From Deltaproteobacteria bacterium (GTDB lineage Bacteria > Desulfobacterota > Binatia > UBA9968), in contig SHYW01000010.1 in the NCBI GenBank assembly GCA_009692615.1, positions 2,670 to 66,669 of the forward strand: 64,000 nt of DNA, given 5' to 3'. Positions 15,086 to 63,085 of this stretch are shown piece by piece. Position 1 is the stretch's first letter. Each line of letters begins with the position of its first letter. The notes beneath the pieces were generated by a model. That model saw only the letters and a list, made by a program, of their open reading frames with translations. It searched no databases and was not told the DNA's origin. The translations under genes and the position numbers were made by a program.

Positions 15086-15100
15086 AAAATTTAATCACGT

Positions 15101-15137
15101 AGGGTCGCGATTCATCGCGCCCTCTTCCGCTTTTTTC
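15101..15137 (+). terminator. Probable intrinsic terminator after the hydrolase gene
   Basis: AGGGTCGCGAttcaTCGCGCCCT is a hairpin (9 bp with one bulge), followed by CTTCCGCTTTTTT. Confidence 0.5.
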
Positions 15138-15194
15138 CTATGTGAACTTTGCGCTCTTTGTGGTTAGATCGATCCGAAAGGAACTTTCACGACA

Positions 15195-16217: not shown

Positions 16218-16240
16218 TTTCCGACTGGAGATGAATTCCC

Positions 16241-17260: not shown

Positions 17261-17266
17261 AGACTA

Positions 17267-17380
17267 TTCACCACAGAGCACACAGAGATCACAGAGCAAA
17301 AGATTCACAAGTCGGGCGGGTCACGACCCGCCCTCCGAATCCTCCGAACCTTTCGTGTGTTTCGTGTTTTTCGTGGTTAA
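17267..17380. repeat. CACGAA-periodic hairpin repeat, copy 2 (variant left arm plus central GC hairpin)
   Basis: The left arm is TTCACCACAGAGCACACAGAGATCACAGAG. The centre is GGGCGGGTcacgACCCGCCC (8-bp stem, 17314-17333). The right arm is TTTCGTGTGTTTCGTGTTTTTCGTGG. Confidence 0.6.
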
Positions 17381-17411
17381 ATCCGAACTTCTTTTCGACG
17401 GAGGACAGGCC

Positions 17412-18431: not shown

Positions 18432-18485
18432 CCGCCGGCGGTTAGAACGGAACCCGCGCTGGAATTAGAAAATGTTGGAGGCAAG

Positions 18486-19520: not shown

Positions 19521-19558
19521 TCGAGCAAGGCTCTGGAAGGATTACTTCGGAGAACCCC

Positions 19559-20605: not shown

Positions 20606-20680
20606 TCATTCGTTCAAGGTTCAAAAGTTCTAAGTCGGACACATTGAGAAGTCTTCAGTATTTTAAGGAGAGCCGGGTTG

Positions 20681-21727: not shown

Positions 21728-21809
21728 CTATTAGCGATCAACGGTCATTTATTAATTTTGGGCTTGCGCTGGTAACCGATAACTGAATACTGACGGCTCA
21801 CGGAGGTCG

Positions 21810-29211: not shown

Positions 29212-29331
29212 GGCACGCACGAGTGAAGGCTTGTCAAATTGCCCGTCAACGCGCAACTAAATTTCCTTATCCATTGACTGTTCAGATTTAGATAGTTTAT
29301 AACTACCTCCTGACACTGGAAGTGTCCCCCG

Positions 29332-30432
29332 ATGATCAACCCATCACAGACTTTCGACGATTGGTACGTAAAAAGCTCTTATCAGGATTTTGTTAAGCAA
29401 GAAGGAGTCCCTCTATACGAAGGCAGCGCGATCGAGGATCTCGCCGCGCTGCCCCTGAGCGATTGGGAGAGAAGAGGGGGAAAGGCCGCGTATACCCGCC
29501 TGGGCGACCAGGAAATCTACAACCTTCAAATCGTGGAGATCCCGGCCAAAGGCGAATTGAAACCCGAGCGCCACATGTACGACTCGGTCATGTACGTCAT
29601 GCAAGGGAGAGGAGCCACGGCGGTTTGGCAGCCGGGTGAGCCCAAACACACCATCGAATGGGAAGAGGGAGCGCTGCTAGCGATCCCTCTGAACGCGTGG
29701 CATCAGGAATTCAATAGCTCGGGCACTGAACCCTGCAGAATACTTTTCGGCACCAACATGGCTCAGGTTATTAACCTGTACCACAATCTGGAATTTGTCT
29801 TTAACAACGACTTTTGTTTCCGCGATCGGTACTCGTTTGCGATGCAGGATTACTTTTCAGGGAACGGCAAACACTGGAATTTACGACTCCACGAAACCAA
29901 TTTCATTGCAGACATCCGCAAGTTGAATCTCGACCCTTATCCTGAACGGGGCAACCGAACATCGATCATGCGCCTTGCGATGTCCAACACCTCCATCGGC
30001 ATGCACGTAATGAGCGCTTCCGAAGGAACCTACGTCACCGCGCACCGGCATGATGCGCGCGCGCACGTGATTGTCATCGAGGGCCAAGGCTATGAGCTGC
30101 TCTTCATGCCCGGGGAAGAAAAGAACCGCCGCAAGGTGCGGACTCGTCCTTACGGGGTGGTGGCCCCTCGGACCAACGAGTTCCATCAACACCACAACAC
30201 CGGGAAGGGTGACTATAAAATGTTGGCCTTTCGGGGTAGCGGTTTGCGTTACGGGAGTGGCAGAAGCTACAACCCGGCGCTCACCGCGCAGGATAAAGAT
30301 CCGTACTCCAAGTACGGCTTCAAGATCTCCTATGAGCGGGAAGATCCCGCGATCCGAGAGGACTATTACAAAGAGCTGGAAAAAAATAACATCCCGCACC
30401 GACTCAACCCGGTCGAGCAAAGCGGCGGCTGA
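29332..30432 (+). CDS. Bicupin-domain protein (dioxygenase-like)
   Basis: 366 aa with two cupin-like cores (..ERHMYDSVMYVMQGRG.. and ..TAHRHDARAHVIVIEGQGYELLF..EFHQHHN). The precise activity is unknown. Confidence 0.55.
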   Translation: MINPSQTFDDWYVKSSYQDFVKQEGVPLYEGSAIEDLAALPLSDWERRGGKAAYTRLGDQEIYNLQIVEIPAKGELKPERHMYDSVMYVMQGRGATAVWQPGEPKHTIEWEEGALLAIPLNAWHQEFNSSGTEPCRILFGTNMAQVINLYHNLEFVFNNDFCFRDRYSFAMQDYFSGNGKHWNLRLHETNFIADIRKLNLDPYPERGNRTSIMRLAMSNTSIGMHVMSASEGTYVTAHRHDARAHVIVIEGQGYELLFMPGEEKNRRKVRTRPYGVVAPRTNEFHQHHNTGKGDYKMLAFRGSGLRYGSGRSYNPALTAQDKDPYSKYGFKISYEREDPAIREDYYKELEKNNIPHRLNPVEQSGG

Positions 30433-30459
30433 GAACAATGAAACGAAGATGACCTGCCT

Positions 30460-31929
30460 ATGGAATCCGAGCATACCGTAAAGAGCCTCCACAGTTTTCT
30501 CGACGATGTCCGTGCTTTGGACCCGGGATACTTGCTGAACGTGGAAGAAGAGCTGGATCCCCGGTTCGAAATTTCCGCCTTACTGGTAAAGTTGGACCAC
30601 GCGCGCAAATTCCCCATTGTGATGTTTCGCCGGGCGAAAGATGTTCAGGGAAATCCGTCCCGCTTTCCGCTCCTTTCCAATCTCTTTGCCAGTCGCCGGC
30701 TCTGCGCGCTGGCGCTGGACTCCACCGTCGAGAGAGTGGGCCTAGACTTCGACTTGAAAAGCCAGAACACAAGACCGCCACTGGTGATCGCCAAAGAGCA
30801 AGCGCCGGTCAAGCAGTGCATTCTCGTCGGCGATCAGGCCAACCTTTATGACTTTCCTGTCCCGCTGCCCTATCACATGGAGGGAGGCCGCACGATCCTG
30901 GGTTCTATCATCACGACGGTGGATAAGGACACCCGGAAAATTTACAACTGCGCGTACCAGACCCTGAGGGTTTTGGGACCGAGACGAGCGACGATGGGTT
31001 TAGGAGAGGGTAGTCATAATTGGGAACGTTTCCGCGAACGGCGAATCCACGGCGAGCCTACACCCTTTGCAGCTTGGATCGGCCACCATCCCGCCGCGTG
31101 TCTAGGCTCCCTAACACGCGCCTCCATCGATGTCGACGAGTATTCGGTCATCGGCGGCATCCTCGATCAACCGCTTCGGCTGGTTGCATCGGAAACCTGG
31201 GGCGAGGATTTTCTTGTGCCGGCCGACGCGGAAATTGTCATCGAGGGAGTGATCCTGCCAAACGAGAAAGGCCGCCACGGGCTCCGCGCCGATTTCGCGC
31301 GCTATTATTCGCCGGAAACGCTTCGGCCCATTGTGGAGATCCACGCGATCACCCACCGCCGCGGCGCCATATATCACGACATCCACCTGGGCGGACGGGA
31401 CCAAGACCACTTGGGAGGAATTCCCCTCGAAGGGGCGGTGTATCGTGCCGTCAAACAGGCCGTGCCCACGGTAAGAAACGTTCATCTTCCCTCATCGGGC
31501 TGCAGCCGCTTTCACGCCTACGTGCAAATCATGAAAACCGCTCCGGGCCAAGGAAGAGAGGCGATCGTCGCCGCCCTTGCCGTTGATCGGCGCTTAAAAC
31601 ATATCGTGGTGGTAGACGAAGACATCGATGTTTTCGATGACGCGGATGTGCTTTGGGCGGTAGCGACGCGCAGCCGCTGGGATCGAGATCTGGTGGTTAT
31701 TCCCAATATGGTTTCAACCACTCGCGACCCGACGGCCTACGCGGTTGGCCCTGAAGATCTTAGTTACCAGGCCTATACTGTCGCCAAGGGCGGCATCGAC
31801 GCAACCAAACCGGCGGCGCCGGAGCCCTTCGAAATCAAGATTCAGGTGCCAGAGGAAACCATGCGCAAGGTTGATTTGGAGAAATGCGTCGGCAGCGCTA
31901 ATTTGGCACGAATCCCATCTGACGCTTAA
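30460..31929 (+). CDS. UbiD-family (prenyl-FMN-dependent) decarboxylase
   Basis: 489 aa. The N-terminus LHSFLDDVRALDPGYLLNVEEELDPRFEISALLVKLD..PIVMF and the overall length fit the UbiD family. Confidence 0.75.
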   Translation: MESEHTVKSLHSFLDDVRALDPGYLLNVEEELDPRFEISALLVKLDHARKFPIVMFRRAKDVQGNPSRFPLLSNLFASRRLCALALDSTVERVGLDFDLKSQNTRPPLVIAKEQAPVKQCILVGDQANLYDFPVPLPYHMEGGRTILGSIITTVDKDTRKIYNCAYQTLRVLGPRRATMGLGEGSHNWERFRERRIHGEPTPFAAWIGHHPAACLGSLTRASIDVDEYSVIGGILDQPLRLVASETWGEDFLVPADAEIVIEGVILPNEKGRHGLRADFARYYSPETLRPIVEIHAITHRRGAIYHDIHLGGRDQDHLGGIPLEGAVYRAVKQAVPTVRNVHLPSSGCSRFHAYVQIMKTAPGQGREAIVAALAVDRRLKHIVVVDEDIDVFDDADVLWAVATRSRWDRDLVVIPNMVSTTRDPTAYAVGPEDLSYQAYTVAKGGIDATKPAAPEPFEIKIQVPEETMRKVDLEKCVGSANLARIPSDA

Positions 31930-32117
31930 TGGGAGAAAGTCGCATTATGGCCAGCTCAATCAGAATTACATGTCCCGGTTGTAATCAGGAGTTCTTGGTT
32001 TCTCCCCAGTTCGAAAAGCTAAGGATCGCAGCCAAGTGTCCGTTTTGCGAAAACGAATTCGCTATCGCAGATGGCAAGAACGTCGTCCGGCCAACTCCTA
32101 TCTTACTAGTCAAATAA
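31929..32117 (+). CDS. Small zinc-ribbon protein (CPxC..CPxC)
   Basis: ITCPGCNQEF..AKCPFCENEF. ATG 31929 overlaps the UbiD stop (TAATG). An alternative ATG 31947 follows GGGAGAAAG. Confidence 0.5.
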   Translation: MGESRIMASSIRITCPGCNQEFLVSPQFEKLRIAAKCPFCENEFAIADGKNVVRPTPILLVK

Positions 32118-32136
32118 TTCGACAAAGAAAGATACC

Positions 32137-33237
32137 ATGCTACGAAGAACGCGCCCTCGCTGGTGGTACTTCGTACCGGTTTGCGCGGTTTTCCTGCTCT
32201 CCTCGTTTTGGCTCAGCGTTCAGGGGGCGGAAATGGCCAGTCGGCTTCCCGAGCGAATAAACAATCTCGCCGCACCGGAGCGAGAAAACTTGTTGGTGGA
32301 GGGGGCAAAAAAAGAAGGCGCGGTCATGTGGTACGCGAACTGGGCGGGCGACGAGGTCGAGAAGATCTCGCAGGGATTCAAGAAAAAATATCCACTCATC
32401 AACGTTCTCGTCTTTCGCGGTGTCAGCGGTAAAGTTGAAGACAAAATTACCACCGAGTACCGGGCGGGGAAGCACCTTGCCGATGTAGTTCTCGCCGGCA
32501 CGTCGAAGATGGCGCTTTTTCGCGAAGGTGGAATCATCGGTCGCTATCTGTCGCCCCAAGTGCGCGCTCTGCAGCCCAAACTTTACGATAGAGACGGTTG
32601 GTGGGTGAGCTTGGCCATGAGTCCGACGGTGATCGGGGCGAACACCAATCTCGTTGCTCCTCAGGAAACTCCCAAAGAGTGGCGCGACCTGCTCGACCCT
32701 AAGTGGAAAGGGAAAATAGGACTCGATACGGAGCCTGACATCATGATTTTGGGGATGGTTCAGGCTTGGGGCGATGAAAAGACTCTGGAATTTATCCGCG
32801 CGCTGGCGCGAAACCAACCGCAGATCCGCAGCGGCCACACGCTCCTCGCCCAGCTGGTGGCTGCCGGCGAGCTTCCAGTTGGAGCGGAGTTGTACGGCTA
32901 CCGGGTGGCCGAGCTGATTGCAAAAAAGGCGCCCTTGCGGATGTCATATCCTAACCCGGCCATTTTTAGTCTGTCACCGATCATGACGGCCGCGTTGCCG
33001 CCTCACCCGCATGCCGCGGCGCTCTTTTATGATTTCCTCCTCTCGGAAGAGGGCCAGACTATAATTGGAACGGACATCGGCAGAACCCCGGTGCGCAAGG
33101 GTATTCCCGCGCGCAATCCCGAATTCGTCAAAGTGCAGGAATCCGACGCGTTCCTCCCTTTGGACCCGTTGATGGCCGGCAAAAAGAGCAACGAAGCGAA
33201 ACGCTGGATCAAAGAAATCCTTCTTGTTCGCAAGTGA
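32137..33237 (+). CDS. ABC transporter substrate-binding protein, Fe3+/AfuA-like family 1
   Basis: 366 aa with a signal peptide. KKEGAVMWYAN..GFKKKYPLINVLVFRG resembles the SBP at 23095. Confidence 0.8.
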   Translation: MLRRTRPRWWYFVPVCAVFLLSSFWLSVQGAEMASRLPERINNLAAPERENLLVEGAKKEGAVMWYANWAGDEVEKISQGFKKKYPLINVLVFRGVSGKVEDKITTEYRAGKHLADVVLAGTSKMALFREGGIIGRYLSPQVRALQPKLYDRDGWWVSLAMSPTVIGANTNLVAPQETPKEWRDLLDPKWKGKIGLDTEPDIMILGMVQAWGDEKTLEFIRALARNQPQIRSGHTLLAQLVAAGELPVGAELYGYRVAELIAKKAPLRMSYPNPAIFSLSPIMTAALPPHPHAAALFYDFLLSEEGQTIIGTDIGRTPVRKGIPARNPEFVKVQESDAFLPLDPLMAGKKSNEAKRWIKEILLVRK

Positions 33238-33333
33238 TTTTGTAACCGTGGCCGATTCGATCTGACGGCCGCAATGACCGCCTGACCGGATTCCATCAGC
33301 GCGCACACGCGCGATGATTCGCCTCAAGCCATA

Positions 33334-35040
33334 ATGCAAGCGGAGACAAGCCGACTGGACTGGAGGTCGCTCATTCTTCTCGGGACCGCCGGGATCGTGG
33401 TCTATCTCACCTTGATCCCCGTCATCATGGTCATTTACGGAAGTTTCCAGGACGGCCCGCCCGGAACCAAGACCCATTTCACCCTGCAGAATTATGCCCA
33501 GGCCTTTGCCAATTCAAATCTCGGCCGGGCCACCTGGAACTCTCTGATCTTTGCGCTCGGCGGCGGCAGCCTGGCGTTTTTCATCGGCTGCTTGCTCGCG
33601 TGGCTGACGGAGCGAACCAACATCCCTTTCCGCGGGTTGATCTATGGCGCCGTTTTCACGGAGATCATGATCCCCGGCATTATCGAGAGCATTTCACTCG
33701 TGCTGCTTTTCAGCCCCAAGATCGGCCTCGTGAACCTCGCTCTCATGAACCTGTTCGCGCTACCAGATCCGCCGTTCAACGTATACAGCATGGGAGGAAT
33801 GATCTGGGCGTTCGGCACGGGAAGCTTTACTACGGCATTTCTCCTCATCGCGGCGGCTTTCCGTTCCATGGACCCATCGCTGGAAGAAGCGGCAATCATG
33901 TCCGGTAGCGGCATCCTCCAAACGCTTCATCAGGTCACCTTGCGACTGATTTCTCCCGCCCTCCTGGCGACTTGGTTGTTGCTGTTTATTCGTGCGGTAG
34001 AGACCTTCGAAGAGGCGGTGATCCTGGGGCTTCCCGCGGGAATCACCCTGCTCGCGACCGAAGTATACTTGAGCGTCCGCGAGGTGCCGACCAATTACAA
34101 CCTCGGTGCCACGTTCGCGATGATTTATCTAGTCATCGCCGGAGCGGGACTGTTGCTCTACTTTCGCGCGACGCGCCACGCCGAGAAATACGCGGTCATT
34201 ACCGGCAAAGGCTTCCGCCCTTACGTCATGAATCTCGGCCGAGCGCGCTATCTGTGCGGTTCTCTCGCTCTGTCTATCTTGAGCTTGGTTCTCGGCCTCC
34301 CTGTCCTGGTGATTCTCTATGCGTCTTTTCTTCCTTGGTACGGGTCCCCGTCCGCGAGCATGTTTCGGCTATTCTCCCTGGACAACTACCGTTGGCTGAT
34401 CACCTACAACGCGATTCTAAACGCGCTGGGCAATAATTTGATCGTCGGTCTCGGCAGCGCCAGCATCTGCGTATTTCTCACCTCGATCGTCGCTTGGATC
34501 GTCATCCGCACGAACATCCCCGGACGCAAGCTCCTCGATGCGCTCGCCTTCTCACCCATCGCCTTTCCGGGCATGGTCTTCGGCCTTTCACTCCTTTGGC
34601 TGTATCTGACCGTTCCGATCCCAGTCTATGGCACGCTATGGATTCTGGTGATTGCCTACGTGAGCAAGTATATGCCGATCTGCATGCGCGCCTGCAGCAC
34701 CGCTCTCACGCAGGTGCATAAAGAGCTCGAAGACGCTTCGCTGATGAGCGGCGCCTCCTGGTGGTATACTTTTTCCCGCGTACTCGTGCCGTTGATCCTT
34801 CCGGGAATGTTTGTCGGCTGGGTCTACGTGCTGACCATGAGTTTTAAAGTCCTGTCTCTGCCCGTCCTTCTCGGGCACGCGGGCACGGAGGTCATCCCGG
34901 TTCTTATCTTCGACCTTTACGAAGGCGGGCAGTACACCCAGCTCAACGCGCTTGGCGTCGCCGTAGTGGCTCTGGTTACCGCTCTGACTTTGCTAGCACG
35001 GCGCGTAAGCCAGCGGTTCAGCGTGGCGGAGATCCGATAG
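33334..35040 (+). CDS. ABC transporter permease, fused double-TMD (FbpB/AfuB-like)
   Basis: 568 aa, highly hydrophobic, with two repeated permease halves. It sits between the SBP and the ATPase. Confidence 0.85.
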   Translation: MQAETSRLDWRSLILLGTAGIVVYLTLIPVIMVIYGSFQDGPPGTKTHFTLQNYAQAFANSNLGRATWNSLIFALGGGSLAFFIGCLLAWLTERTNIPFRGLIYGAVFTEIMIPGIIESISLVLLFSPKIGLVNLALMNLFALPDPPFNVYSMGGMIWAFGTGSFTTAFLLIAAAFRSMDPSLEEAAIMSGSGILQTLHQVTLRLISPALLATWLLLFIRAVETFEEAVILGLPAGITLLATEVYLSVREVPTNYNLGATFAMIYLVIAGAGLLLYFRATRHAEKYAVITGKGFRPYVMNLGRARYLCGSLALSILSLVLGLPVLVILYASFLPWYGSPSASMFRLFSLDNYRWLITYNAILNALGNNLIVGLGSASICVFLTSIVAWIVIRTNIPGRKLLDALAFSPIAFPGMVFGLSLLWLYLTVPIPVYGTLWILVIAYVSKYMPICMRACSTALTQVHKELEDASLMSGASWWYTFSRVLVPLILPGMFVGWVYVLTMSFKVLSLPVLLGHAGTEVIPVLIFDLYEGGQYTQLNALGVAVVALVTALTLLARRVSQRFSVAEIR

Positions 35041-35042
35041 AG

Positions 35043-36152
35043 ATGATGATCCGCGCTCACAATTTGAAGAAAGCGTTTGCCACCCAGGAGGAAAAAGTTT
35101 CCGCTTTAAATGGGATCGGCTTTGACGTCGAGTCCGGCAGCTTCTTTACTCTCTTGGGGCCTTCGGGATGCGGCAAGACCACCACCCTTCGCTGTATCGC
35201 GGGACTGGAGAGGCCCGATGAAGGAGAGATCGCGATCGGCGACAGGACCGTCTTCTCCTCTTCGCAGCGCATTTTTATTCCCGGAAATAAGCGCGATATC
35301 GGAATGGTTTTCCAGTCCTATGCGATCTGGCCGCACATGACCGTATACGGGAACGTTGCCTATCCTTTGCGGGCCAGGGGGCGGCCGCGAGCCGAGATTG
35401 AAGAAAAAGTTCATGCCGCGCTCAAGCTGGTGGGATTAGAGGATTTCCACGACCGGCTGGCGCCGCGGCTTTCCGGTGGGCAGCAGCAACGCGTCGCGCT
35501 CGCGCGCGCGTTGGTTGCGGAGCCGAGCGTCCTTCTCTTGGATGAGCCACTCAGCAACCTCGACGCCAAGCTGCGTAACCAGATGCGCTGGGAACTCAAG
35601 GACCTGCAGCGGCGGCTCGGAACCACGACGATTTACGTGACCCACGATCAAGTCGAAGCGCTGGCGATTTCGGATCGCATCGCGCTGATGAATAAAGGTC
35701 AAATCGCGCAGATCGGGACTCCGCGGGAGATCTATGCCAACCCGGTGAACGAGTTTGCCGCTGACTTTATCGGCGCCGCGAATATCATCAGTGGGGAGCT
35801 GAGCGAGGAGATAGACCATCGTAGCTTTGCGCGCATCACGACATCCTTTGGGGTGCTGATGGCGACGCAAAAGGGAGAGCTGAATAAGGCGTCGAAGGAT
35901 GTGCTGATCGCTTTCAGACCCGAGGATGTGTCACTAGTGAGCCAAGCGACTTGCGCCGAGGGTCAGCATAATGTTTTCCAAGGAATTGTCCAGGGATCGA
36001 CCTACCTTGGGGACTCAAGCGAATTTAGGATAACGGTTGGAGAACAGAGAATCCAGGCCAAAACAGATAGTACCACCCATTTCCCCGTCGGCGCCGTCGT
36101 CTATCTCAGTATCGCGCCGGCAGCGTGTCTAGTTATTCGCCGCGGCGATTGA
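35043..36152 (+). CDS. ABC transporter ATP-binding protein (FbpC/PotA-like)
   Basis: It has Walker A GPSGCGKTT, the signature LSGGQQQRVALARAL and Walker B LLLDEPLSNLD, plus a C-terminal regulatory/TOBE-like region. Confidence 0.95.
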   Translation: MMIRAHNLKKAFATQEEKVSALNGIGFDVESGSFFTLLGPSGCGKTTTLRCIAGLERPDEGEIAIGDRTVFSSSQRIFIPGNKRDIGMVFQSYAIWPHMTVYGNVAYPLRARGRPRAEIEEKVHAALKLVGLEDFHDRLAPRLSGGQQQRVALARALVAEPSVLLLDEPLSNLDAKLRNQMRWELKDLQRRLGTTTIYVTHDQVEALAISDRIALMNKGQIAQIGTPREIYANPVNEFAADFIGAANIISGELSEEIDHRSFARITTSFGVLMATQKGELNKASKDVLIAFRPEDVSLVSQATCAEGQHNVFQGIVQGSTYLGDSSEFRITVGEQRIQAKTDSTTHFPVGAVVYLSIAPAACLVIRRGD

Positions 36153-36425
36153 GAATAACCCTGCGGAGCGTGATCATTATCGCCTCAACACCTGCGTCAT
36201 ATTTGCATTCGTCTTTAGGCACTCAATCCTGGTTTGGATTTGTCGGAGCCTTGTGGGCGATACGCCACACTGCTCGTCAACCGCCCCAAAACAAAGATTT
36301 CCAGCCCTGCGCGTGTCCGCGCCGTTCTTAATCTACAAGGAGAAAAACTTACTTGACATCAATAATAATTAAATCTAAACAATAGGCTCCGCGACGATTT
36401 TAACCGAGAAGAACAAACCCTGAAT

Positions 36426-37409
36426 ATGTCGATCCTCTTCCTTCTCCAACTTTTGGGTACATGTCTCGCCTTGATATTAACGTTTGGGCAGGGGTTTAGC
36501 GCCGAGCCGCAAAAACTCGATCGCCTGAAGATCGGCTATGCTTCGATCAGCGGCAACCGGATCTCGCTATGGGCGACGCAAGATGCCGGTTTTTTTTCCC
36601 GTCATGGCATTCAAAGCGAGCTTATTTTTTTTCCTACGTCTGCACAGGGAATGCCGGCTCTTCTGGCTGGGGAGGTGCCGATATACTTAGGATCGGCGGA
36701 CACCGCAGCCCTAGCGGCGGCGCGGGGCTTTGAACTGGTCATATTTGCGAGCAATGAACCGACTCAATATAAGCTTATCGTCCAGCCCCATATTAGGAGC
36801 GTGAATGAATTGAGGGGACAAAGAATCGGCGTCGATCGTATCGGCAGCTCGAGCTATTACGCGACCAAAAGGATGCTAGAGAAGCTTGGGCTAAAAGCGC
36901 AAGACATGAAATTCTTGCCGGTCCCCGGCGGTGGGAATCAAAGAGCAGCGGCTTTCAGCTCGGGCAATCTCGAAGCGGTTGTCTCCACTGTTGAACGGTT
37001 CGAGCGCGCGAAGATTCCGTATCATGTTTTGGCAGATGCTGTCAGCATGGGTATTCGGGTGTTCGGCAATTCGTTTATCACGCCGCGTGTCTTTCGCGAT
37101 CAGAATCGAGATATTCTCACGCGATTTATCAGAGCCTTGGTCGACGCGAGTTACTGGCTCAAGGATCCAAAGAACCGAGAGAGTGCGCTCAAGATAGTGA
37201 GCCAGAGGCTCAGAACCTCGGACCCGGCGGTATTGAGTCTTAATTATCGCCTCTACATAGAACCGCTAATACCTTTACCGTATACCGACATCAATGACCT
37301 AAGGACAAACATCGAAGATCTCGCCCAAGAAAATGCCAAGCTTCGAGATTTCGATGTCGCTCGGATGGTAGATAATAGTTTCATACGTCAGGTCCAGCAG
37401 GATCGCTAG
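36426..37409 (+). CDS. NMT1/SsuA-like substrate-binding protein
   Basis: 327 aa with a signal peptide and family blocks (IRSVNELRGQRIGVDRIGSSSYY, LEKLGLKAQD). Confidence 0.8.
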   Translation: MSILFLLQLLGTCLALILTFGQGFSAEPQKLDRLKIGYASISGNRISLWATQDAGFFSRHGIQSELIFFPTSAQGMPALLAGEVPIYLGSADTAALAAARGFELVIFASNEPTQYKLIVQPHIRSVNELRGQRIGVDRIGSSSYYATKRMLEKLGLKAQDMKFLPVPGGGNQRAAAFSSGNLEAVVSTVERFERAKIPYHVLADAVSMGIRVFGNSFITPRVFRDQNRDILTRFIRALVDASYWLKDPKNRESALKIVSQRLRTSDPAVLSLNYRLYIEPLIPLPYTDINDLRTNIEDLAQENAKLRDFDVARMVDNSFIRQVQQDR

Positions 37410-37938
37410 CTGGTCTCGCCCACTGGGGCAGATAGTATTTTCTGATTCTATACGTTCGGCAACTCCATCCGTAGCGCCAACCCCAGCACATAAACTAAAC
37501 GGCATTTTCCTGGTTCAGCGCACAAAGCAAGTGGGCTTGTGATTGAACGCGCCATCGACCGACGCGGCGCTAACCGTTTGGCATCGGGGTCGCTCGCCCA
37601 ATCCATTTAGTCGATCGGGGCAAAGAGTTCTTCAATCTTGAGGCGCCGATCGGTTAGCCTTAAACCGACAATAAAATTGGCGTCAGGCAGCCAATTTGAG
37701 TTTGTCCTCGATGGGTTCGATCCGTTCTTGCGCCGCAGGAGTCACCGAGAAGCGCCGCACTGAGTAGCCTTGAGGCCAGATAAGACATGCCGAATGGTGA
37801 ATCCGCTTGAATCGGATCGTTTTCAACCTGTGTAGCAAGTAACCGCAAGTCCGTTTGCGCGATCTGGGCTTTGTTGTCGCCAGCGTCTGGAGCTGAAAGT
37901 TTCGTAGCAGGTTGTGGCTCAACACCGAGATCCGTTGC

Positions 37939-38136
37939 CAGGCCGAGAAAATGATCCAAGCCGTGCGCGCGAAAAAACTCCCGGTGGCCTATCTGACGTT
38001 CGAAGGCGAACAACACGGTTTCCGCGAAGCGGAGAACATCAAGCGCGTGCTTGAAGTGGAGCTATATTTCTACTCGAAAGTGTTTGGATTCGTACTGGCT
38101 GACCCGGTTGAGCCGGTGGAAATCGAAAATCTATAG
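37939..38136 (+). pseudogene. Displaced 3' fragment of an S9 peptidase gene (last 65 codons), copy 2
   Basis: [65 protein letters not shown] compares with the intact gene end [65 protein letters not shown]. Of 65 residues, 57 are identical. Homology stops abruptly upstream of codon Q. Confidence 0.85.
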
Positions 38137-38234: not shown

Positions 38235-38585
38235 ATGGATACAGCCGCGGATCGGAAAAGCATCTATCCGGAAGTTGACGAAGAACTTCTCAAGGGAGTA
38301 GTTCGCCGTATTTGTGAAGCAGGAAGCCCTCACAAGATCGTTCTCTTCGGTTCCCGGGCTCGTGGCGATGCCCGTCCTGACAGCGATCTCGATGTGCTCA
38401 TTATTGAAGACTCAAACCTACCTCGGTACCAGCGAGCTACACGTTATCGCCGCGCGCTCTTGGGTTTGTTTCCAGCCAAGGACATTGTGGTTTGGACGCC
38501 GGCAGAAATTCACGAGTGGAGCGAAGTGCCCCATGCTTTCATCAGTATGGCGCTAAGAGAAGGCAAAGTTCTTTATGAAGGATAA
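38235..38585 (+). CDS. Nucleotidyltransferase-domain antitoxin (MntA-like)
   Basis: IVLFGSRARGDARPDSDLDVLII is the minimal-nucleotidyltransferase GS..RG..D.D motif. Confidence 0.85.
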   Translation: MDTAADRKSIYPEVDEELLKGVVRRICEAGSPHKIVLFGSRARGDARPDSDLDVLIIEDSNLPRYQRATRYRRALLGLFPAKDIVVWTPAEIHEWSEVPHAFISMALREGKVLYEG

Positions 38586-38961
38586 GGTCGCCCACGCCCG
38601 CGGCTGGTTCCTGAAAGGGGACAGCGACTTCGCGGATGTGCGGCGCACGGTGATCAGTGAAGGCCCTTTCGACACCGCGTGTTTTCACGCCCAGCAGGCG
38701 GCGGAAAAATATTTGAAGGGTCTGCTAGCGCACTTCGACGAGCCGATCCCCAAGACCCATGACATCGAGGAGCTCCAGCGACTCTGCCTCCCCCTTGCGA
38801 AAAACCAAAAGCTAGCTGAAATGGATCTGACGGTGCTTTCAGATTACGCTGTCCCCGCCCGGTACGACTTGGAGTTTTGGCCGGATCGGGACACGGCTGC
38901 TGACGCTCTGGCTCTCGCCGAACAGGTTCGCGAGATTGTCCTTGCCATTGTGTCACAATGA
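38575..38961 (+). CDS. HEPN-domain toxin (HepT-like)
   Basis: 128 aa overlapping the MNT gene by 11 nt. It has the HEPN helical pattern (FHAQQAAEKYLKGLL..KTHDIEEL..PARYD). Confidence 0.8.
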   Translation: MKDKVAHARGWFLKGDSDFADVRRTVISEGPFDTACFHAQQAAEKYLKGLLAHFDEPIPKTHDIEELQRLCLPLAKNQKLAEMDLTVLSDYAVPARYDLEFWPDRDTAADALALAEQVREIVLAIVSQ

Positions 38962-44328: not shown

Positions 44329-45504
44329 ATGACCGCACGAAATTTATCGAACTTTCTACTCAAAGGCGGACGCCTCATCGATCCGGCAATTGGCACCGAC
44401 GGCGTGCTCGACATCCGTGTGCGCGACGGCAAGGTTGACGCCATCGGCGCCAATCTCAATGCCGACGGCGCGACGGTCGTCGACGTTAAAGGCCAGATCG
44501 TCACGCCGGGATTGATCGATGTCCATCTCCATTTAATGAAAGGTCTCGGCGCCTTCGGCGTCGATCCGGATATTTTCGGCGTCGGTTCCGGCGTCACCAC
44601 CGTCGTCGACGCCGGCAGCGCCGGCCACACCATGCTCAACGTCTTTCGCAACTACGTCACCGACAACGCCAAGACGCGAGTGCTGAATTACATCAACCTG
44701 TCCACGCTCGGCGGCGTCGCCGGACCGGGATTCAGCATTCTCGCCGATCCGCGCTTGATTGATGAAGCGAAGATCGAGCAGGCGGTCGAGGCCAACCGCG
44801 ACATGATCGTCGGCATCAAGATCATGGCCACCGGCGGCGCGCTGGGCGCGCAGGGGCTGAAGCCGTTGGAGCGCGCGCGCAAACTCGGCGACGAACTAAA
44901 AATTCCGCTGCTGGTTCACATCGGTGAGAGCTGGACCCAGGGTACCGAGCCGGTCGCCGTCGGCGACGTGCTCAAATATTTGCGTGCCGGCGATATTGTC
45001 ACGCATATGTTCACCGTCCATCCCGGCGGCTTGCTCGACGGCAATGGCAAACTCTGGCCGCAAGTTCGAGATGCAAAGGCATCCGGTGTATTGATGGACG
45101 TCGGCCACGGTTTGCATAATTTGAACTTCGACGTCGCCCGCAAAGTCCTCGACCAAGGCCTCCATCCCGACGGCGTTTCCACCGACGGCCACCGCGGCAA
45201 CCGCGCCGGGCCCGTATACGATCTGCCGACGACCATGGGGAAGTTAATGGCGCTGGGATTTTCCCTGAATCAAGTGATCGAGATGGCGACTGCCAACGCG
45301 GCGAGACTGCTTGGCAGAAGCGGCGACCTCGGCACACTGAAAGTTGGCGCACCGGCGGAAATATCAGTGCTGAAGATCGAAGACAGAGAGTGGAAAGCGC
45401 TGGACTCGCAAAAAGGCACGATTCCCGCGCATCAAACCATCACTCCGGTCTACGCCATCCGCGGCGCGTCGATTTACGAGCCACTGCCGGTCGAGCGGCC
45501 GTAA
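44329..45504 (+). CDS. Metal-dependent amidohydrolase/deacetylase-family protein
   Basis: Track ORF 44302..45504. The first 9 codons run through the repeat, so I prefer ATG 44329. LKGGRLIDP..VTPGLIDVHLHL carries the HxH metal motif. Confidence 0.85.
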   Translation: MTARNLSNFLLKGGRLIDPAIGTDGVLDIRVRDGKVDAIGANLNADGATVVDVKGQIVTPGLIDVHLHLMKGLGAFGVDPDIFGVGSGVTTVVDAGSAGHTMLNVFRNYVTDNAKTRVLNYINLSTLGGVAGPGFSILADPRLIDEAKIEQAVEANRDMIVGIKIMATGGALGAQGLKPLERARKLGDELKIPLLVHIGESWTQGTEPVAVGDVLKYLRAGDIVTHMFTVHPGGLLDGNGKLWPQVRDAKASGVLMDVGHGLHNLNFDVARKVLDQGLHPDGVSTDGHRGNRAGPVYDLPTTMGKLMALGFSLNQVIEMATANAARLLGRSGDLGTLKVGAPAEISVLKIEDREWKALDSQKGTIPAHQTITPVYAIRGASIYEPLPVERP

Positions 45505-45812
45505 ATGGAACTGACCTGAATTAGCTTTGGTGTCACAATATTTTTTCGGGGCATGGAGGGACCGGGGTCCACTGGCTGCGCGGCGTTTGAAGAAAAAGCG
45601 AATGTGAGTGGAATCGTAAGTACGAGAAACAAGATTATTGTTGGAGAGATGAAGTCATCGGGAGATCCGGCCTGCAAGGATTCTCAAAATCGGCACTTTT
45701 CAGTTCCCTATCTCGTAGAACCAGCACAAACAAAGCCTCGCAATCGACGGGTTTGGAACAATAGTAGTCATTCTGTTTTACGCGCTACGCATCGCATAGC
45801 TGTCATTGATGG

Positions 45813-46103
45813 TCACACCAACTCAAGGCGCAGTCGGCGGCCGATTGCTGACGCCGCTCGGCTCAAGGTAGCCAAAGTGACGCCGTCATTGTTTGGATCG
45901 AGCAAGCGGTTAAGCTGTACGCGGCTGGTAGCCATACGCCGCGCCATTTCGGTGCGAGTGAGATTTTGTTTTTGCATGGCTTGTTCGATTTGCCACGCCA
46001 CGACTTTCTTGATGGAGGCGTTGGTGGCTTCTTCGTAGATGCCTTCCTCTTTGAGCCAATCCTCGAACCGTCCACCGATATGGCGGTTTTTGCGCTTCTT
46101 CAT
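45813..46103 (-). CDS. higA: XRE-family HTH antitoxin (HigA-like)
   Basis: This is the internal ATG 46103-46101 of track ORF 45813..46310. MKKRKNRHIGGRFEDWLKEEG..QKQNLTRTEMARRMATSRVQLNRLLDP is the HTH. Its ATG overlaps the toxin stop (ATGA). Confidence 0.8.
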   Translation of the reverse strand: MKKRKNRHIGGRFEDWLKEEGIYEEATNASIKKVVAWQIEQAMQKQNLTRTEMARRMATSRVQLNRLLDPNNDGVTLATLSRAASAIGRRLRLELV

Positions 46104-46444
46104 CGTTTTGCCTCTCCCATTCGTTTTATGGCCAGCGCCAGATCGCCCTTTGGAGTCTTTTGCGTCTTCTTGATGAAGCCATGCAGCAATAGCAACTCGC
46201 CGTCGATCACACAAAACAGCACTCGGACGATGCGCCGGCTTGGTAAATCGCTGCGTATTTCCCAAAGCCCGTCGCCGAGCGATTTGCATAACGGCATGCC
46301 AATCGGCCAACCAAATTCAACATCACGGATGTCATGCCCGACATGTTTACGGTCGGTAACCGGCAAGCGCATCAACCAGTCACGAACCGGATTGGCTCCA
46401 GCTGCCGTGAGATAGAAACGAGCCACGACACGCTTAATCGGCAT
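46100..46444 (-). CDS. higB: RelE/ParE-superfamily toxin (HigB / Gp49-like)
   Basis: This is the internal ATG 46444 of track ORF 46100..46507. MPIKRVVARFYLTAAGANPVRDWL..LGDGLWEIRSDLPSRRIVRVLFCVIDGELLLLHGFIKKTQKTP is the typical pattern. Confidence 0.8.
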   Translation of the reverse strand: MPIKRVVARFYLTAAGANPVRDWLMRLPVTDRKHVGHDIRDVEFGWPIGMPLCKSLGDGLWEIRSDLPSRRIVRVLFCVIDGELLLLHGFIKKTQKTPKGDLALAIKRMGEAKR

Positions 46445-46575
46445 CGATCCTTGCACACCTTCATGTTGTACCAATATCGGTACGCCGTCAATCGCAATGG
46501 TTGGCACGCTGACTTCGGATCGTGGGCTGCTTTCTTTTGAGTCGGGTTCAGAATGAATCCCAGCTAAGTTGACTA

Positions 46576-46689
46576 TGGTAAGCGCTCGACTCGCAAAAAG
46601 ACTCGATCCCCGCCCACCAAACTATCACGCCCGTCTACGCCATCCGCGGCGACGCGATCTACGAGCCGTTGCCGGTCGAGCGACCGTGA
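46576..46689 (+). pseudogene. Displaced 3' fragment of an amidohydrolase gene (last 37 codons plus stop)
   Basis: It reads W*ALDSQKDSIPAHQTITPVYAIRGDAIYEPLPVERP*. The intact gene end (45391-45504) reads WKALDSQKGTIPAHQTITPVYAIRGASIYEPLPVERP*. The two are equal in length, and 96 of 114 nt are identical by hand alignment. Eleven of the 18 differences are synonymous third-position changes. Confidence 0.85.
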
Positions 46690-46698
46690 CACGTTACG

Positions 46699-47997
46699 CT
46701 AAGCTAATTCACTCTCGGTTGCCAGCCGGCGAACCAGCAACGCCCAAGCGATGAGGATCGGCACGCTGATTTGCACGGCAAAGCGCGGCCAGCCCAACGC
46801 CGGACCGATTTGCAACATCCCCAAACTTAAGTAGGAGCCGACGAAAACCGCGACGTAGACCAAAGCGGACCAGACCAGCAATCGACCGCCATCCAGCGCG
46901 CGGCTGTTGGTACCTTGCGCGTAATGCGACCAGACGATGGTCAGCGGCAAGAGCAAAATCATCAGATCGTAAAACATCAGGTGCGGACTGATCACCAGTG
47001 CCAACGCCAAAGTCGCCGCCATGCGGAAATCCCAAGAGCGCGTTGCCGGCTGCCATGGCGACGAACGCCAGCAGCAATAAACCAGCGCCAAGCCGGCGAG
47101 CGTTAACAACACGGAAAGTAATTTGACGACTTCAACCGGCAAGAAACCGCTGAACAGCAAAATGCAAAAGCCGTAGAGATTATGCAGCTTGGCGATCGGA
47201 TAGCTTGGCAGAAACGGCAGCTGCGCGATCTGCGGTATGACGCGCAAGTAATCCAATGTGGCGGTCAGACTGAGCAAGCAACCGACAGCGATCCACAGCG
47301 CCGAGGTTAACAGACAACCGCTAAGCGCGCGCCAACGCCCGTTGAGCAAAAGTAGAAACCCAGGCACGATCATGAGCTGCGGTTTGTAGAGCAGACAGCC
47401 GAGCGCAACGCCGGCGCTCAAGTCCGCGCCGCGGCGCAAGCGAACAAAGAGAATCGTCAACAAAAGAAACGACAGCGCTGAGTTCTGGTTCGCGAGGAAC
47501 CAAGCGATCGTCGGATAAAAACAAAAACTCAGCAGCATAAGCGCCGCCGTCGAGTAACTAGCCAGCGGCGCCAATTCCCAACGCAGCATGTTCCACGCGA
47601 ACGCCAACGCCGCCAAGCCGGCGACAGTCCACAGCATGAGGCCGATTTCGAAACTCGCCAGCGCGAACGGCGCGTAGAGCAAAACTGTATGAGGCGGATG
47701 GTTGAAGGGCGTGAACTGATCGGCGCTCAGTTTGAGCGTCGCCATCTGAAAGGTTTGCTGGGCGGCGAAATCGTATAACTCACTCAACCGTCCATCCAAA
47801 AAAAATCGCCCGCCGGTGAAGAATTAAATAAAATCGCCGTCGTGAAACAACGAACGCGCCGACGGATGGAATAACGTGCTCAACGCAATCGCCAGGGCAA
47901 CTAGCGGCAGCGCTCGAGTATAAATTTTTATCCGGCGCGAATTGAGCCAGCCGGCGACAGCGGCAATCAAGCGCGAAGAACAATCGATGGCAGCCAA
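46699..47997 (-). pseudogene. GT87/DUF2029-like polytopic membrane glycosyltransferase with in-frame TAA
   Basis: Track ORF 46699..47799 continues upstream in the same frame (..LPLVALAIALSTLFHPSARSLFHDGDFI*FFTGGRFFLDGRLSELYDF..). It is interrupted only by TAA at 47826-47824. The start codon is uncertain (TTG 47997 or CTG 48003). The family call is moderate. Confidence 0.55.
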
Positions 47998-48010
47998 GAG
48001 CAGGCCTAAG

Positions 48011-49459
48011 TCAGCGCCGCCGGCGCGTCGTCGATCCGAATATCGAGCCTAAGGCGCCGCGAATGATTTCCCGTCCCACCTGGCTGCCGATGGCACGCAC
48101 CGCGCTGGTCGCCATGGCGCCGAGCAACTTGCCGGCGGTGGATTGCCATTCACTTGGCGCCGCGGCCGTTCCGGTTTCCGCTTGCGGCGCGCGGGCTTTG
48201 AGCAGTTCGTAGGCCGATTCGCGGTCGACAACTTTTTCGTAGTGGCCGAAGAGCGACGATTGTTTGATCAAGGTGTCCCGCTCGCCGGCGCTCAAGGGCG
48301 GCAGTTGGCTTTGCGGCGGAAAGATCTGCGCGCGGTCGACCACGTTGGGTTGGCCTTTGTCGTTGAGAAACGACACCAGCGCTTCGCCGACGGCCAGTTC
48401 GGTGATCGCGCTTTCGACGTCGATATCGGGATTCTGGCGAAAAGTTTGCGCCGCCGCTTTCACCGCCTTCTGATCCCGCGGCGTGAAGGCGCGCAAAGCA
48501 TGTTGCACGCGGTTGCCCAACTGGCCGAGCACGACATCGGGAACGTCGAGGGGATTTTGCGTGACGAAGTAAACCCCGACGCCCTTGGAGCGAATCAAGC
48601 GGATCACCTGTTCGATTTTTTCCAAGAGCGCGTCGGGCGCGTCGGTGAATAGTAAATGAGCTTCATCGAAAAAAAATACCAGCTTGGGTTTCTCCGGATC
48701 GCCGACCTCGGGCAAGCGCTCGAACAGTTCCGAGAGCAGCCAGAGCAAAAACGTCGCGTAAAGCTTCGGCGCGGCGATCAATTTGTCGGCGTTAAGAATA
48801 TTGATCACGCCACGGCCGGCGCCATCAGTTTGCATCAGGTCGTCGAGATCGAGGGCCGGTTCGCCAAAAAATTTGTCGGCGCCCTGCTCTTCCAAACCGA
48901 GCAAGCCGCGTTGGATCGCGCCGATGCTCGCCGCCGAAACGTTGCCATATTGGGTTTTGAACTGCGCCGCGTTGTCGCCGACATACTGGAGCATGGCGCG
49001 CAGGTCCTTCAAATCGAGCAGCAGCATGCCGTTGTCGTCGGCGATTTTGAAAACCAGCGTCAGCACGCCGCTCTGGGTTTCATTGAGGTTGAGCAAGCGC
49101 GCCAACAGTAGCGGCCCCATGTCAGAGATGGTCGTGCGCACCGGATGGCCCTGCTCGCCGTAGAGATCCCAAAACACCGTCGGGTAACCGGCGAAGCTGA
49201 AATCTTTCAAACCGATCTGAGCGGCGCGCTCGGCGATCTTAGGGTTGTCGACGCCCGGCCGGGCGATGCCCGACAAATCGCCTTTGACATCCGCCATGAA
49301 CACCGGCACGCCGATGGCACTGAAGTGTTCGGCGATCACCCGCAGGGTCACCGTCTTGCCCGTGCCGGTGGCGCCGGCGATCAGCCCATGGCGATTGGCC
49401 AGACGTGGCAGGAGTAAATGAAGCGCTTTTCCTTTGCCGATCGGCAAACCTACAATCAT
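48011..49459 (-). CDS. HerA-like helicase-domain ATPase (DUF853 / YjgR family)
   Basis: 482 aa. It has Walker A GATGTGKT in ..[26 protein letters not shown].., and ..[12 protein letters not shown] (Walker B). Confidence 0.85.
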
Positions 49460-49606
49460 CCGTGGAACCCTCTCATTTCAGCGATTTATAGAGCTTTTCT
49501 AGCATGATTACGCTTGAGAAACAGCGCCGATTCGGATATAAATACCTCCTAGCGTGAATGAAAACTCTCAGTCACGCGTCCAAGTCACCAGAACCAACAA
49601 AATGAA

Positions 49607-49633
49607 GCCGTGACGAACGGAGGGCCGCACGGT
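49607..49633 (+). promoter_or_regulatory. Leader hairpin with loop AACGGAGGG upstream of lysine-rich gene 1
   Basis: The stem is GCCGTG (49607-12) / CACGGT (49628-33), with inner C-G and G-C pairs. The loop carries AACGGAGGGC. The same loop sits on a different, compensating stem at 50287-50309. Confidence 0.5.
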
Positions 49634-49688
49634 CATCGAGTGGGTTCCAAAAAATTTAGAAACTGATTCCATGAAAGGGGATTACTTA

Positions 49689-50072
49689 ATGAAACGTTTT
49701 CTAGGCGTATTAGTTGCTTCGATGTTTCTCGCCTCGGCGGCTTTTGCGGCGGATGCCATGAAAGAAGAGAAGAAGGCCGATGCCAAAGCTGATGCCAAGG
49801 CAATGAAAGAAGAGAAGAAGGCCGATGCCAAAGCGACCAAAGAAGAGAAGAAGGCTGATGTGAAGGCCACCAAGGAAGAGAAAAAGGCCGACGCCAAAGC
49901 CGATGCCACGGCAATGAAGGAAGAAAAGAAGGCCGATGCCAAGGCAATGAAGGAAGAGAAGAAGTCTGATGCCAAGGCTACCAAGGAAGAGAAAAAGGCC
50001 GACGCCAAAGCCGATGCCAAGGCAATGAAGGAAGAAAAGAAAGCCGAGAAGAGCGACAAGCCCAGCAAGTAA
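49689..50072 (+). CDS. Secreted lysine/glutamate/alanine-rich tandem-repeat protein
   Basis: Track ORF 49671..50072. ATG 49689 follows AAAGGGGA and gives signal peptide MKRFLGVLVASMFLASAAFAADA. Eight units of [M/T]KEEKKADAKA follow, some with an extra DAKA. Confidence 0.75.
   Translation: MKRFLGVLVASMFLASAAFAADAMKEEKKADAKADAKAMKEEKKADAKATKEEKKADVKATKEEKKADAKADATAMKEEKKADAKAMKEEKKSDAKATKEEKKADAKADAKAMKEEKKAEKSDKPSK
49758..50060 (+). repeat. Coding tandem repeat, 33-nt and 45-nt units with a 111-nt higher-order period
   Basis: ATGAAAGAAGAGAAGAAGGCCGATGCCAAAGC.. is repeated eight times. The pattern of 15+11+11 aa units recurs about 2.7 times. Confidence 0.85.
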
Positions 50073-62969: not shown

Positions 62970-63042
62970 GATTGCGTGGTGGGGCGGTTTTCTTTGTAGC
63001 CGTGCGGTTGTCCTCTGAAACGACGGAGCCAATTGCGAGAAA

Positions 63043-63085
63043 GAAAATCTCCCCTATCCCCTCTTTTCCAAAGAGGGGCACCCGA
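63043..63085. repeat. Two-module G/C-tract hairpin repeat, locus B, module 1
   Basis: GAAAATCTCCCCTATCCCCTCTTTtccAAAGAGGGGCACCCGAG has a perfect 9-bp stem (63058-66 / 63070-78). It is nearly identical to 9390-9424. Confidence 0.65.

Follow-up and report, generated by a model that had tools for sequence, protein, structure and literature searches.

Several routes are described by which foreign DNA comes to lie at the end of a gene without the gene being broken. Nobusato et al. reportedly found in 2000 that restriction-modification genes had been inserted with a long target duplication, Hill et al. are said to have described in 1989 the integration of e14 and of phage 21 into icd, and homology-facilitated illegitimate recombination (HFIR) was reportedly characterised by de Vries and Wackernagel in 2002. 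When a suicide vector carrying the 3' fragment of a gene integrates by a Campbell-type event, the gene stays intact and the cloned fragment is duplicated on both sides of the insert. In the cases that are tabulated for it, insertion with long target duplication is a class of restriction-modification gene complexes (Furuta, Abe & Kobayashi 2010, PMC2853133; summarised in PMC3874152), and the classic example of a replacement 3' end and a displaced fragment that differ by synonymous changes is e14 at icd of E. coli, which left the icdC pseudogene (PMC13626634). Here we describe a locus in a stretch of 64,000 nucleotides from a Binatia genome (contig SHYW01000010.1 of assembly GCA_009692615.1; this whole stretch is called the window below) in which a higBA toxin-antitoxin cassette lies between an amidohydrolase gene and a displaced second copy of the last 37 codons of that gene. 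We infer, for the joining mechanism as well as for the direction of import, that the locus is a scar left when genes were imported without a recombinase and the host gene was kept intact. The parts of the locus are the following.

44329 to 45504, plus strand: intact gene for an amidohydrolase/deacetylase-family metallohydrolase of 391 aa (Pfam Amidohydro_1, 3.7e-18; NCBIfam PRK09237)
45391 to 45504, plus strand: copy A, the functional last 37 codons and stop codon TAA, in frame with the gene
45505 to 45812, no strand: filler, non-coding, GC 0.474 against a window average of 0.565
45813 to 46103, minus strand: higA, antitoxin of 96 aa with a helix-turn-helix (HTH_37, 7.8e-5; HTH_26, 5.8e-4)
46100 to 46444, minus strand: higB, toxin of 114 aa of the Gp49/RelE-ParE superfamily (PF05973, 1.5e-19)
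46445 to 46494, minus strand: predicted promoter/operator of higBA, from an alignment of seven contexts
46495 to 46575, no strand: spacer between the module and copy B, without a match elsewhere; its right edge is junction J2
46576 to 46689, plus strand: copy B, a dead fragment of the last 37 codons (AAA to TAA at codon 2; Gly to Asp)
46699 to 47799, minus strand: gene for a GT87-family glycosyltransferase, convergent with the amidohydrolase gene (Pfam GT87, 1.7e-15)
48011 to 49459, minus strand: gene for a HerA-like ATPase, the ancestral convergent neighbour, by synteny in relatives

Copies A and B are identical at 96 of 114 positions in an ungapped alignment that keeps the amidohydrolase frame, as an earlier note made from the sequence alone had reported. 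The next-best ungapped match to copy A in the whole window, on either strand, is 52/114, and the background matches have a mean of 29.3 with a standard deviation of 4.9, which puts copy B at a z of about 13.6. The homology runs from the TGG of Trp354 to the stop codons (TAA in A, TGA in B). The 60 nt flanking each side of the copies do not match each other, and an extension of the homology upstream of Trp354 was rejected because it is not significant. Copy A is translated as WKALDSQKGTIPAHQTITPVYAIRGASIYEPLPVERP followed by the stop, and copy B as W, a stop, ALDSQKDSIPAHQTITPVYAIRGDAIYEPLPVERP and the final stop. Eleven of the 18 differences had been described in the earlier note as synonymous third-position changes; eleven are at third positions, but only ten of these are synonymous, the other being part of a GCG to GAC change, and CTG to TTG, at a first position, is the eleventh synonymous change. 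The 1071 nt between the copies consist of the 308-nt filler, higA, higB and 131 nt upstream of higB, which agrees with the original description of higB, higA and about 300 nt of non-coding DNA of lower GC. When the window was compared with itself, only this pair, a second pair at an S9 peptidase gene and one 45-nt element were found. That the repeat might be a common intergenic element was rejected because its other copies are only the ends of orthologous genes.

The duplication of the gene end around higBA is confirmed as real and not an assembly artefact. A Logan assembly of a different sequencing run (L001, SRR8561391, 4608 nt) is 99.96% identical to the window over 45180-49787 and covers both junctions, and a 57.7-kb ENA contig covers them likewise. 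In the source sample (ENA ERZ1305449) a 48,879-nt contig stops within higB and another contig crosses higB; this contig end may be due to heterogeneity among strains or to a break that the repeats caused at the cassette. We also observed a perfect 11-nt inverted repeat, TGAATTAGCTT and AAGCTAATTCA, at 45517-45527 and 46701-46711. Its arms sit 12-13 nt past the stop codons of copy A and copy B, the second arm being the last GT87 codons, and about 0.2 chance matches are expected in 1.3 kb. The mechanism that we prefer leaves it unexplained.

Scans of genome and metagenome collections gave about 77 orthologous loci, mostly from soil metagenome-assembled genomes (MAGs) labelled Candidatus Binatia or "delta proteobacterium". 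About 75 of these orthologs share the ArgJ-amidohydrolase synteny, the usual order being ArgJ and amidohydrolase followed by a convergent gene for the HerA-like ATPase. When the gene end of each of the 77 loci was searched for in its own downstream DNA a second copy was found only in L007, and about 75 loci of Binatia relatives have one gene end each. Orthologous loci that lack higBA, which the earlier note had proposed to look for, are thus numerous, and L101 represents the empty site, where the amidohydrolase gene has one end only and is followed by the convergent GT87 gene. GT87 is at this position only in the window, L007 and L101, and in the window its stop codon is 9 nt from that of copy B. 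The stop codons of the amidohydrolase and HerA genes are 4-10 nt apart in many relatives, the spacer between them ranging from 4 to 2922 nt across the loci, and it contains IS200-like transposase genes, a substrate-binding protein gene (L117, L132) or GT87; this spacer is a hypervariable hotspot. The IS200-like (Y1 transposase) genes in it, intact or frameshifted, are at 2146-2718 of L083, 1809-2387 of L136, 3826-4382 of L094 and 459-1076 of L144 and are possibly REP-associated, and other relatives have 300-430 nt of non-coding DNA there.

The same higBA, remnant, GT87 and HerA genes are present in a second lineage, at about 16% divergence, which is represented by L007, a MAG, and by L162, an ENA contig of a different sample. 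L007 is collinear with the window from 45752 to 49081 and, in the gene, through 45512. Since the junctions of L007 and L162 are common with those of the window, the insertion arose once; for J2 this rests on a weak alignment between window and L007, in which the last 20 nt or so before copy B align only loosely and not significantly by themselves. The insertion is old and/or has spread between lineages. That this is not a fresh target-site duplication, as the earlier note had argued, is borne out by the same structure and junctions in the diverged lineage and by a remnant in which there are a nonsense codon and a replacement of an invariant glycine.

The amidohydrolase scores 393 bits against the NCBIfam PRK09237 equivalog model, for which the cut-off is 371, and the model covers residues 9-383. 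Because it reaches residue 383 of 391, the conserved fold takes in what the last 37 codons encode, and an insertion at codon 354 that brought no replacement end would cut the amidohydrolase fold short. The C-terminal 37 residues are strongly conserved across orthologs. Copy A differs from the ortholog consensus at 16 positions, 13 of them third positions, and has one private change (D/E to A). Copy B of the window has two private changes, the AAA to TAA nonsense change and the Gly to Asp change at a glycine that is invariant in all orthologs, and in L007 the counterpart of copy B no longer has a stop codon and shows four private changes at first or second positions. Copy B is a pseudogene in decay. 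Between the window and L007 it differs at 19/111 sites (0.17), and selective constraint on it was rejected since this divergence is at the local synonymous level of higBA and of the 3' half of GT87 (0.19-0.22); copy B changes at about the local neutral rate. A role of copy B as a terminator or promoter was also rejected. No promoter-like site was found in a scan of 45300-46900, the sole terminator-like site is in copy A on the minus strand, and terminator-like sites are not enriched over shuffles.

To which lineage each copy belongs is clearest in L007. The amidohydrolase gene tree is a star-like radiation in which nearest neighbours are at about 0.175, and a tree with window and L007 as sisters was rejected because the nearest neighbour of the window gene body shifts among L084, L002, L007 and L082 across bootstraps. 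The gene body and copy A of L007 are in the clade of L004, L089 and L008, the unique changes against those references being 94-103 for the window and 49-56 for L007. All 9 clade marker sites are present in copy A of L007, up to 6 nt before the stop codon, and none of the 9 is present in its copy B, whose nearest relative is copy B of the window. The two copies of L007 differ at 33/111 sites as against 17/111 in the window (P = 0.015). Clearly, the L007 copies are different alleles, and either remnant B is foreign or else the gene plus its end was replaced later. A direction of import in which the remnant is native and the functional end imported is not shown; in L007 it is copy A that carries the markers of its own clade. 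A donor strand with the A-insert-B arrangement could pair with a single-copy target in two registers, and by this reasoning either copy could be inherited from the donor.

For the window's own amidohydrolase pair the case for two alleles is weak. Its differences are at third positions in 11 of 17 cases, which is significant against uniformity (P = 0.008). When unique changes were polarised by the consensus of 20 close orthologs copy A had 11 and copy B had 4 (P = 0.005), and this favours two alleles because an in-place duplication predicts more changes on the dead copy. A homology that ends at the stop codon is expected of alleles since the coding sequence is alignable and the DNA downstream is not, and the stop-codon boundary, seen here as well as at the S9 peptidase gene described below, supports alleles since it would not be expected of a staggered-cut duplication of the recipient's own target.

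Third-position divergence between the window and L007 has a trough at the cassette. It is 0.39 in ArgJ and 0.31 in the amidohydrolase gene (0.38 in copy A), drops in a sharp step at the left junction to 0.19 in higA and 0.22 in higB, with copy B at 0.17 when all sites are counted, is 0.12-0.28 over the 3' half of GT87 and climbs back within this gene to 0.36-0.40 in its 5' half, with 0.39 in HerA. The unique changes of the window and of L007 are 29 and 26 in higBA and 67 and 74 in GT87, so the rates are equal. With equal rates the trough means that the block is younger than its flanks, and this is the outcome expected of transfer between lineages by homologous recombination.

The second gene-end duplication of the window is at an S9 peptidase gene and is statistically the clearer case of the two. 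Its parts are these.

29014 to 29211, plus strand: copy A2, the last 65 codons and stop codon of the S9 peptidase gene at 27277-29211 (Pfam Peptidase_S9 on the cluster representative)
29212 to 37938, plus strand: insert of 8.7 kb with six plus-strand open reading frames (ORFs), their translations read by eye
37939 to 38136, plus strand: copy B2, the displaced last 65 codons with the frame open, 164/198 identical to A2, ungapped and in frame

Copy B2 recurs 8.9 kb downstream of A2, and the homology ends at the stop codon (TAA against TAG). The differences at the first, second and third codon positions are 4, 4 and 26 with the stop codon included and 4, 4 and 25 without it (33/195 sites), and the 25 third-position differences out of 33 give P = 7.5e-7. 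The amount and pattern match those between orthologs from different lineages, for example L178 and L179, which differ by 0.144 with 2, 0 and 26 changes at the three positions. The changes of B2's own are at third positions in 13 of 18 cases (P = 8.5e-4), and B2 has five replacements at positions that are conserved in more than 100 of 119 homologs. Because relatives have the S9 peptidase gene directly before PCMT or HAD genes of the same backbone that continues to ArgJ and the amidohydrolase gene, this case is an insertion into a syntenic backbone. From their translations the six ORFs of the insert look like a cupin-like protein, a UbiD-like protein, an ABC substrate-binding protein, a permease, an ATPase and an NMT1-like substrate-binding protein. 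Directly after the S9 remnant a nucleotidyltransferase (MNT)/HEPN toxin-antitoxin-like pair was recognised by Pfam at 38235-38585 and 38575-38961; it is missing in the three relatives that were examined. The proposal of the earlier note that the copies are two functional alleles is supported in part, and indirectly, by the stop-codon boundary, by the L007 copies that fall in different clades and by the third-position differences of the S9 pair. The synonymous bias of the window's amidohydrolase pair, on which that note had based the proposal, can hardly be told from the outcome of an in-place duplication: against the 0.43 expected when A is selected and B neutral the 11 of 17 third-position differences give P = 0.06.

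The higBA cassette has been compared with databases and with its own relatives. HigB scores 70 bits against Pfam PF05973, where the cut-off is 23.9, and matches PDB 6AF3, named 'HigB toxin', at E = 1.2e-7; its plasmid homologs are annotated as RelE/ParE family toxins, and 440 PLSDB plasmid records have toxin homologs. The two Pfam matches of HigA, HTH_37 and HTH_26, are both under the gathering score, and none of the NCBIfam models matches HigB or HigA. The two genes are co-directional, with the toxin gene first and a 4-nt overlap (ATGA). Homologs of higA at 84-94% identity carry a toxin partner except in L173-L176. There the higA homolog (89% amino-acid identity) is beside a Fic-domain gene, and of higB no more than about 60 nt at the 3' end are left, so that it looks like a descendant of the same module that has lost its toxin gene. 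Upstream of higB the predicted signals are an AAGGA ribosome-binding site at 46448-46452, a -10 element CAACAT at 46463-46468 and a -35 element TTGACG at 46486-46491. The palindrome GTACCGATATTGGTAC at 46468-46483 fills the spacer between the -35 and -10 elements, its GTACC-N6-GGTAC is conserved in seven contexts, and this is suggestive of an operator in the higBA promoter through which the operon may be autoregulated. In all relatives of the cassette the homology ends at the stop codon of higA (45813) and at 46491-46495, about 50 nt upstream of the higB start. The module 45813-46494 presumably is a complete autoregulated operon of 683 bp and, judging from homology, would function as an ordinary type II toxin-antitoxin operon. 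Relatives at 74-84% nucleotide identity are in at least three other contexts (L163; L172 and L177; the ParA/ParB plasmid-like contigs L164-L171). Flanking direct repeats were looked for around these relatives and none was found.

The DNA on both sides of the module is less informative. Only the ends of the filler align with L007 (about 45505-45550 and 45752-45812), and its middle is 239 nt in the window as against 693 nt in L007, where an ORF of 110 aa (5285-5617, minus strand) with no Pfam or PADLOC match occupies the differing part. In the filler there is no ORF with a Pfam match and no Rfam match below E = 0.2, and an RNA gene was rejected because the only two Rfam matches are at E = 0.24 and 0.53. 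In the spacer 46495-46519 is conserved with L007 and is followed by 34 nt that have no counterpart there. Neither the filler nor the 81-nt spacer at 46495-46575 has a match among the collected loci or encodes anything recognisable, and protein remnants in them were rejected since blastn and tblastx against the collected loci and Pfam were all empty. The 1071-nt insert and the 1.5-kb insert of L007 contain no ORF or fragment of an integrase, transposase or recombinase, and the insert ends have no terminal inverted repeats. As to integrons, no suitable inverted repeat at the insert ends and no Rfam match was found in a check made without an attC-specific model, and there are no tandem cassettes and no integrase in the neighbourhood. 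A scan of viral contigs with the last 58 residues of the gene was empty, on which an integrative phage carrying the amidohydrolase end was rejected.

The explanation that we prefer, and that in our judgement has an even chance of being correct, is a recombinase-free import by homologous recombination and one illegitimate joint, followed by spread between lineages. If this is the case, then the 3' end of the amidohydrolase gene, together with its downstream filler and the self-contained higBA, would have been imported from a related lineage into one Binatia lineage. It would have been joined by homologous recombination in the common gene on one side and by the illegitimate joint J2 at Trp354 on the other, that is, by HFIR or, equivalently, by a Campbell-type single crossover of a circularised fragment. 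The outcome would be two allelic copies of the last 37 codons, of which the upstream one completes the gene and is selected and the downstream one is dead and decays. Later, a block that begins just past the stop codon of copy A and reaches roughly to mid-GT87 would have spread by ordinary homologous recombination with the amidohydrolase gene and GT87/HerA as arms. This step explains why a second lineage has identical junctions and yet a native-looking copy A and a foreign copy B.

Several results weigh against this import. The arrangement expected of a donor, the amidohydrolase gene with its native filler and higBA but no copy B, is not present among the approximately 77 loci, no microhomology is evident at junction J2, and HFIR usually deletes recipient DNA and does not duplicate it. 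When end and body divergence were calibrated on 1225 ortholog pairs, copies A and B of the window were found to fit the window gene body alike (mean residuals -0.000 and -0.001), and this equal relation to the gene body is what the earlier note itself had named as refuting its two-allele reading. The window pair has only 17-18 differences in all, a weak signal, and its third-position bias is, as given above, at P = 0.06 against the expectation for one selected and one neutral copy. The unique-change counts of A and B are equal when L087, L141 or L121 is taken as the outgroup. The remnants are unequal, with 3 unique changes in the window and 14 in L007 (P of about 0.013), and this counts against the import because a single neutral history does not predict it; a faster clock in L007 was rejected as the cause since the rates in higBA and GT87 are equal. 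Finally, the arrangement of S9 peptidase followed by cupin gene was absent in the three relatives examined.

An insertion with long target duplication in place, in which 114 bp of the recipient's target were duplicated and the copies were identical at birth, would place the L007 differences in a later allelic replacement. We consider it unlikely. The locus agrees with the operational definition of that class, the repeats being longer than 30 bp, the insert smaller than 20 kb and without mobility genes and the empty site single-copy, the A-B divergence of 0.153 in the window fits an event that somewhat predates the ancestor of the window and L007 blocks, and such a duplication predicts a third-position bias that the window pair does not exceed significantly (P = 0.06). 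However, it does not predict that the repeats at both loci of the window stop exactly at the stop codon. Moreover, the third-position bias in the own changes of the S9 remnant means that this remnant evolved as a functional gene end, and copy B of the amidohydrolase pair has fewer unique changes than copy A (4 against 11), although a dead copy should evolve faster.

Another explanation is that the cassette propagates itself by homology, using the 114-nt gene end as a portable arm. A crossover between A and B would excise a circle, and a RecA-dependent single crossover would let it re-enter the same gene, leaving mosaic copies A and B and identical junctions. Two lineages with A copies from different clades do have identical junctions, the flanks are older than the cassette, displacement at different times would account for the unequal decay of the remnants (3 unique changes in one, 14 in the other), and the ambiguity of register against a single-copy target would let either copy come from the donor. 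On the other hand, only two integrant lineages are known, no circular form and no empty-site allele of the same population was seen, the trough that reaches into GT87 fits an ordinary double crossover better than a circle of 1.2 kb, and the relatives of the cassette in other contexts have no gene-end repeats. We think this course of events improbable, and it is with the same small probability that higBA and its 114-nt gene end could form a recombinase-free selfish unit, one that never breaks the gene since it carries the gene's own tail.

About as improbable, in our view, is that a site-specific integrative element (a phage, an integrative and conjugative element or an island) entered the 3' end of the amidohydrolase gene in the manner of e14 and phage 21 at icd and then decayed until all but the addictive higBA was deleted. 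Toxin-antitoxin pairs resist deletion. Relatives of the module are on plasmid-like contigs, and copy B adjoins GT87, like the intact end in L101. In its architecture the locus matches icd, e14 and icdC (PMC13626634). But neither the 1071 nt nor the 1.5 kb of L007 has an integrase gene or a fragment of one, the viral-contig scan was empty, and the copy attached to the gene body in L007 is native-like at 9 of 9 marker sites, which is the opposite of what such an element predicts. The S9 insert has six ordinary-looking ORFs, mostly of apparent transport and metabolic function, as judged from translations without a scan for recombinase families. The longest identical run between A and B, about 20 nt, is not evidence of a core site because its codons are conserved in all orthologs. 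An assembly artefact or a contig chimeric of two strains we give practically no credence, since against the one contig of the source sample that ends inside higB there are a second contig of that sample that spans the region, the independent Logan assembly and the diverged L007 and L162 with the same architecture, which refute it at the level of assembly.

Other features of the window are these. At 12740-22820 there are about eight tandem paralogous genes, 60-78% identical and with a period of about 1.03-1.17 kb, which probably encode NMT1-like substrate-binding proteins, and 73-nt segments similar to this array are at 36775, 54177 and 57147. Just past the HerA-like gene, 49671-50072 encodes a small protein of 11-residue KEEKKADAKA(T/M) repeats (33-nt period in the DNA) with an N-terminal hydrophobic stretch that resembles a signal peptide. 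The 45-nt element at 9380-9424 and 63035-63078, 93% identical between its two places, contains a hairpin (CCCCTCTTTTTCAAAGAGGGG) and may be a REP-like repeat.

The movement of chromosomal toxin-antitoxin pairs that have no mobility genes of their own is poorly documented. The value of this locus is in its unusually complete comparative context: the empty site is clean, the insertion is known from a second lineage, and the same 64 kb contain a sister case. Together these permit a duplication of the recipient's target to be told from the import of a second allele by host recombination. If the import is true, then gene-end remnants are markers by which horizontal gene gain in uncultured Binatia can be dated and traced, and addiction modules and ordinary gene clusters can enter by one recombinase-free route. 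If the homology-targeted unit is true, then the same route moves clusters like the 8.7-kb S9 insert, and gene-end duplication would mark gene gain in these soil bacteria in general.

Compared with the known systems, the locus is like the published insertions with long target duplication in that an addiction-type module was inserted with neither transposase nor integrase between direct repeats of about 100 bp that are single-copy in insert-free relatives, and in some of the cases given there the repeats also overlap the 3' ends of genes (PMC2853133). It is unlike them in that the cargo is a type II toxin-antitoxin pair and not restriction-modification genes, the repeats are 84% identical as against about 93-100% in the cases of Tables 2-3 of that survey (PMC2853133), and the repeat ends exactly at the stop codon; in addition, the copies at the sister locus look like alleles of different lineages, which argues against a duplication of the own target. 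With e14 at icd it shares a functional replacement 3' end at the gene body, a C-terminal fragment that was displaced to the opposite end of the insert and copies that differ mainly by synonymous changes, and recombination between the copies would restore a single chimeric gene. However, e14 is 15 kb long with its own integrase and site-specific excision, whereas here the insert is 1.07 kb without a recombinase and the second lineage has the native copy next to the gene body. HFIR and Campbell-type integration have in common with the course proposed here one homologous crossover and one non-homologous joint, and in both the copies can be different alleles; the difference is that here no donor genome, circular intermediate or J2 microhomology was seen. 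The cassette resembles HigBA systems such as that of S. pneumoniae (PDB 6AF3) in having the toxin gene first, the 4-nt overlap, a RelE-superfamily toxin, a helix-turn-helix antitoxin, a promoter palindrome and homologs that are common on plasmids, but its similarity to characterised HigB is distant (E = 1.2e-7), the antitoxin is under the Pfam gathering score and NCBIfam gives no match. The locus reveals no new molecular system. As an operon the cassette is an ordinary higBA-like one, and the footprint, foreign DNA added to a gene end with the gene left unbroken, is of a largely known kind.

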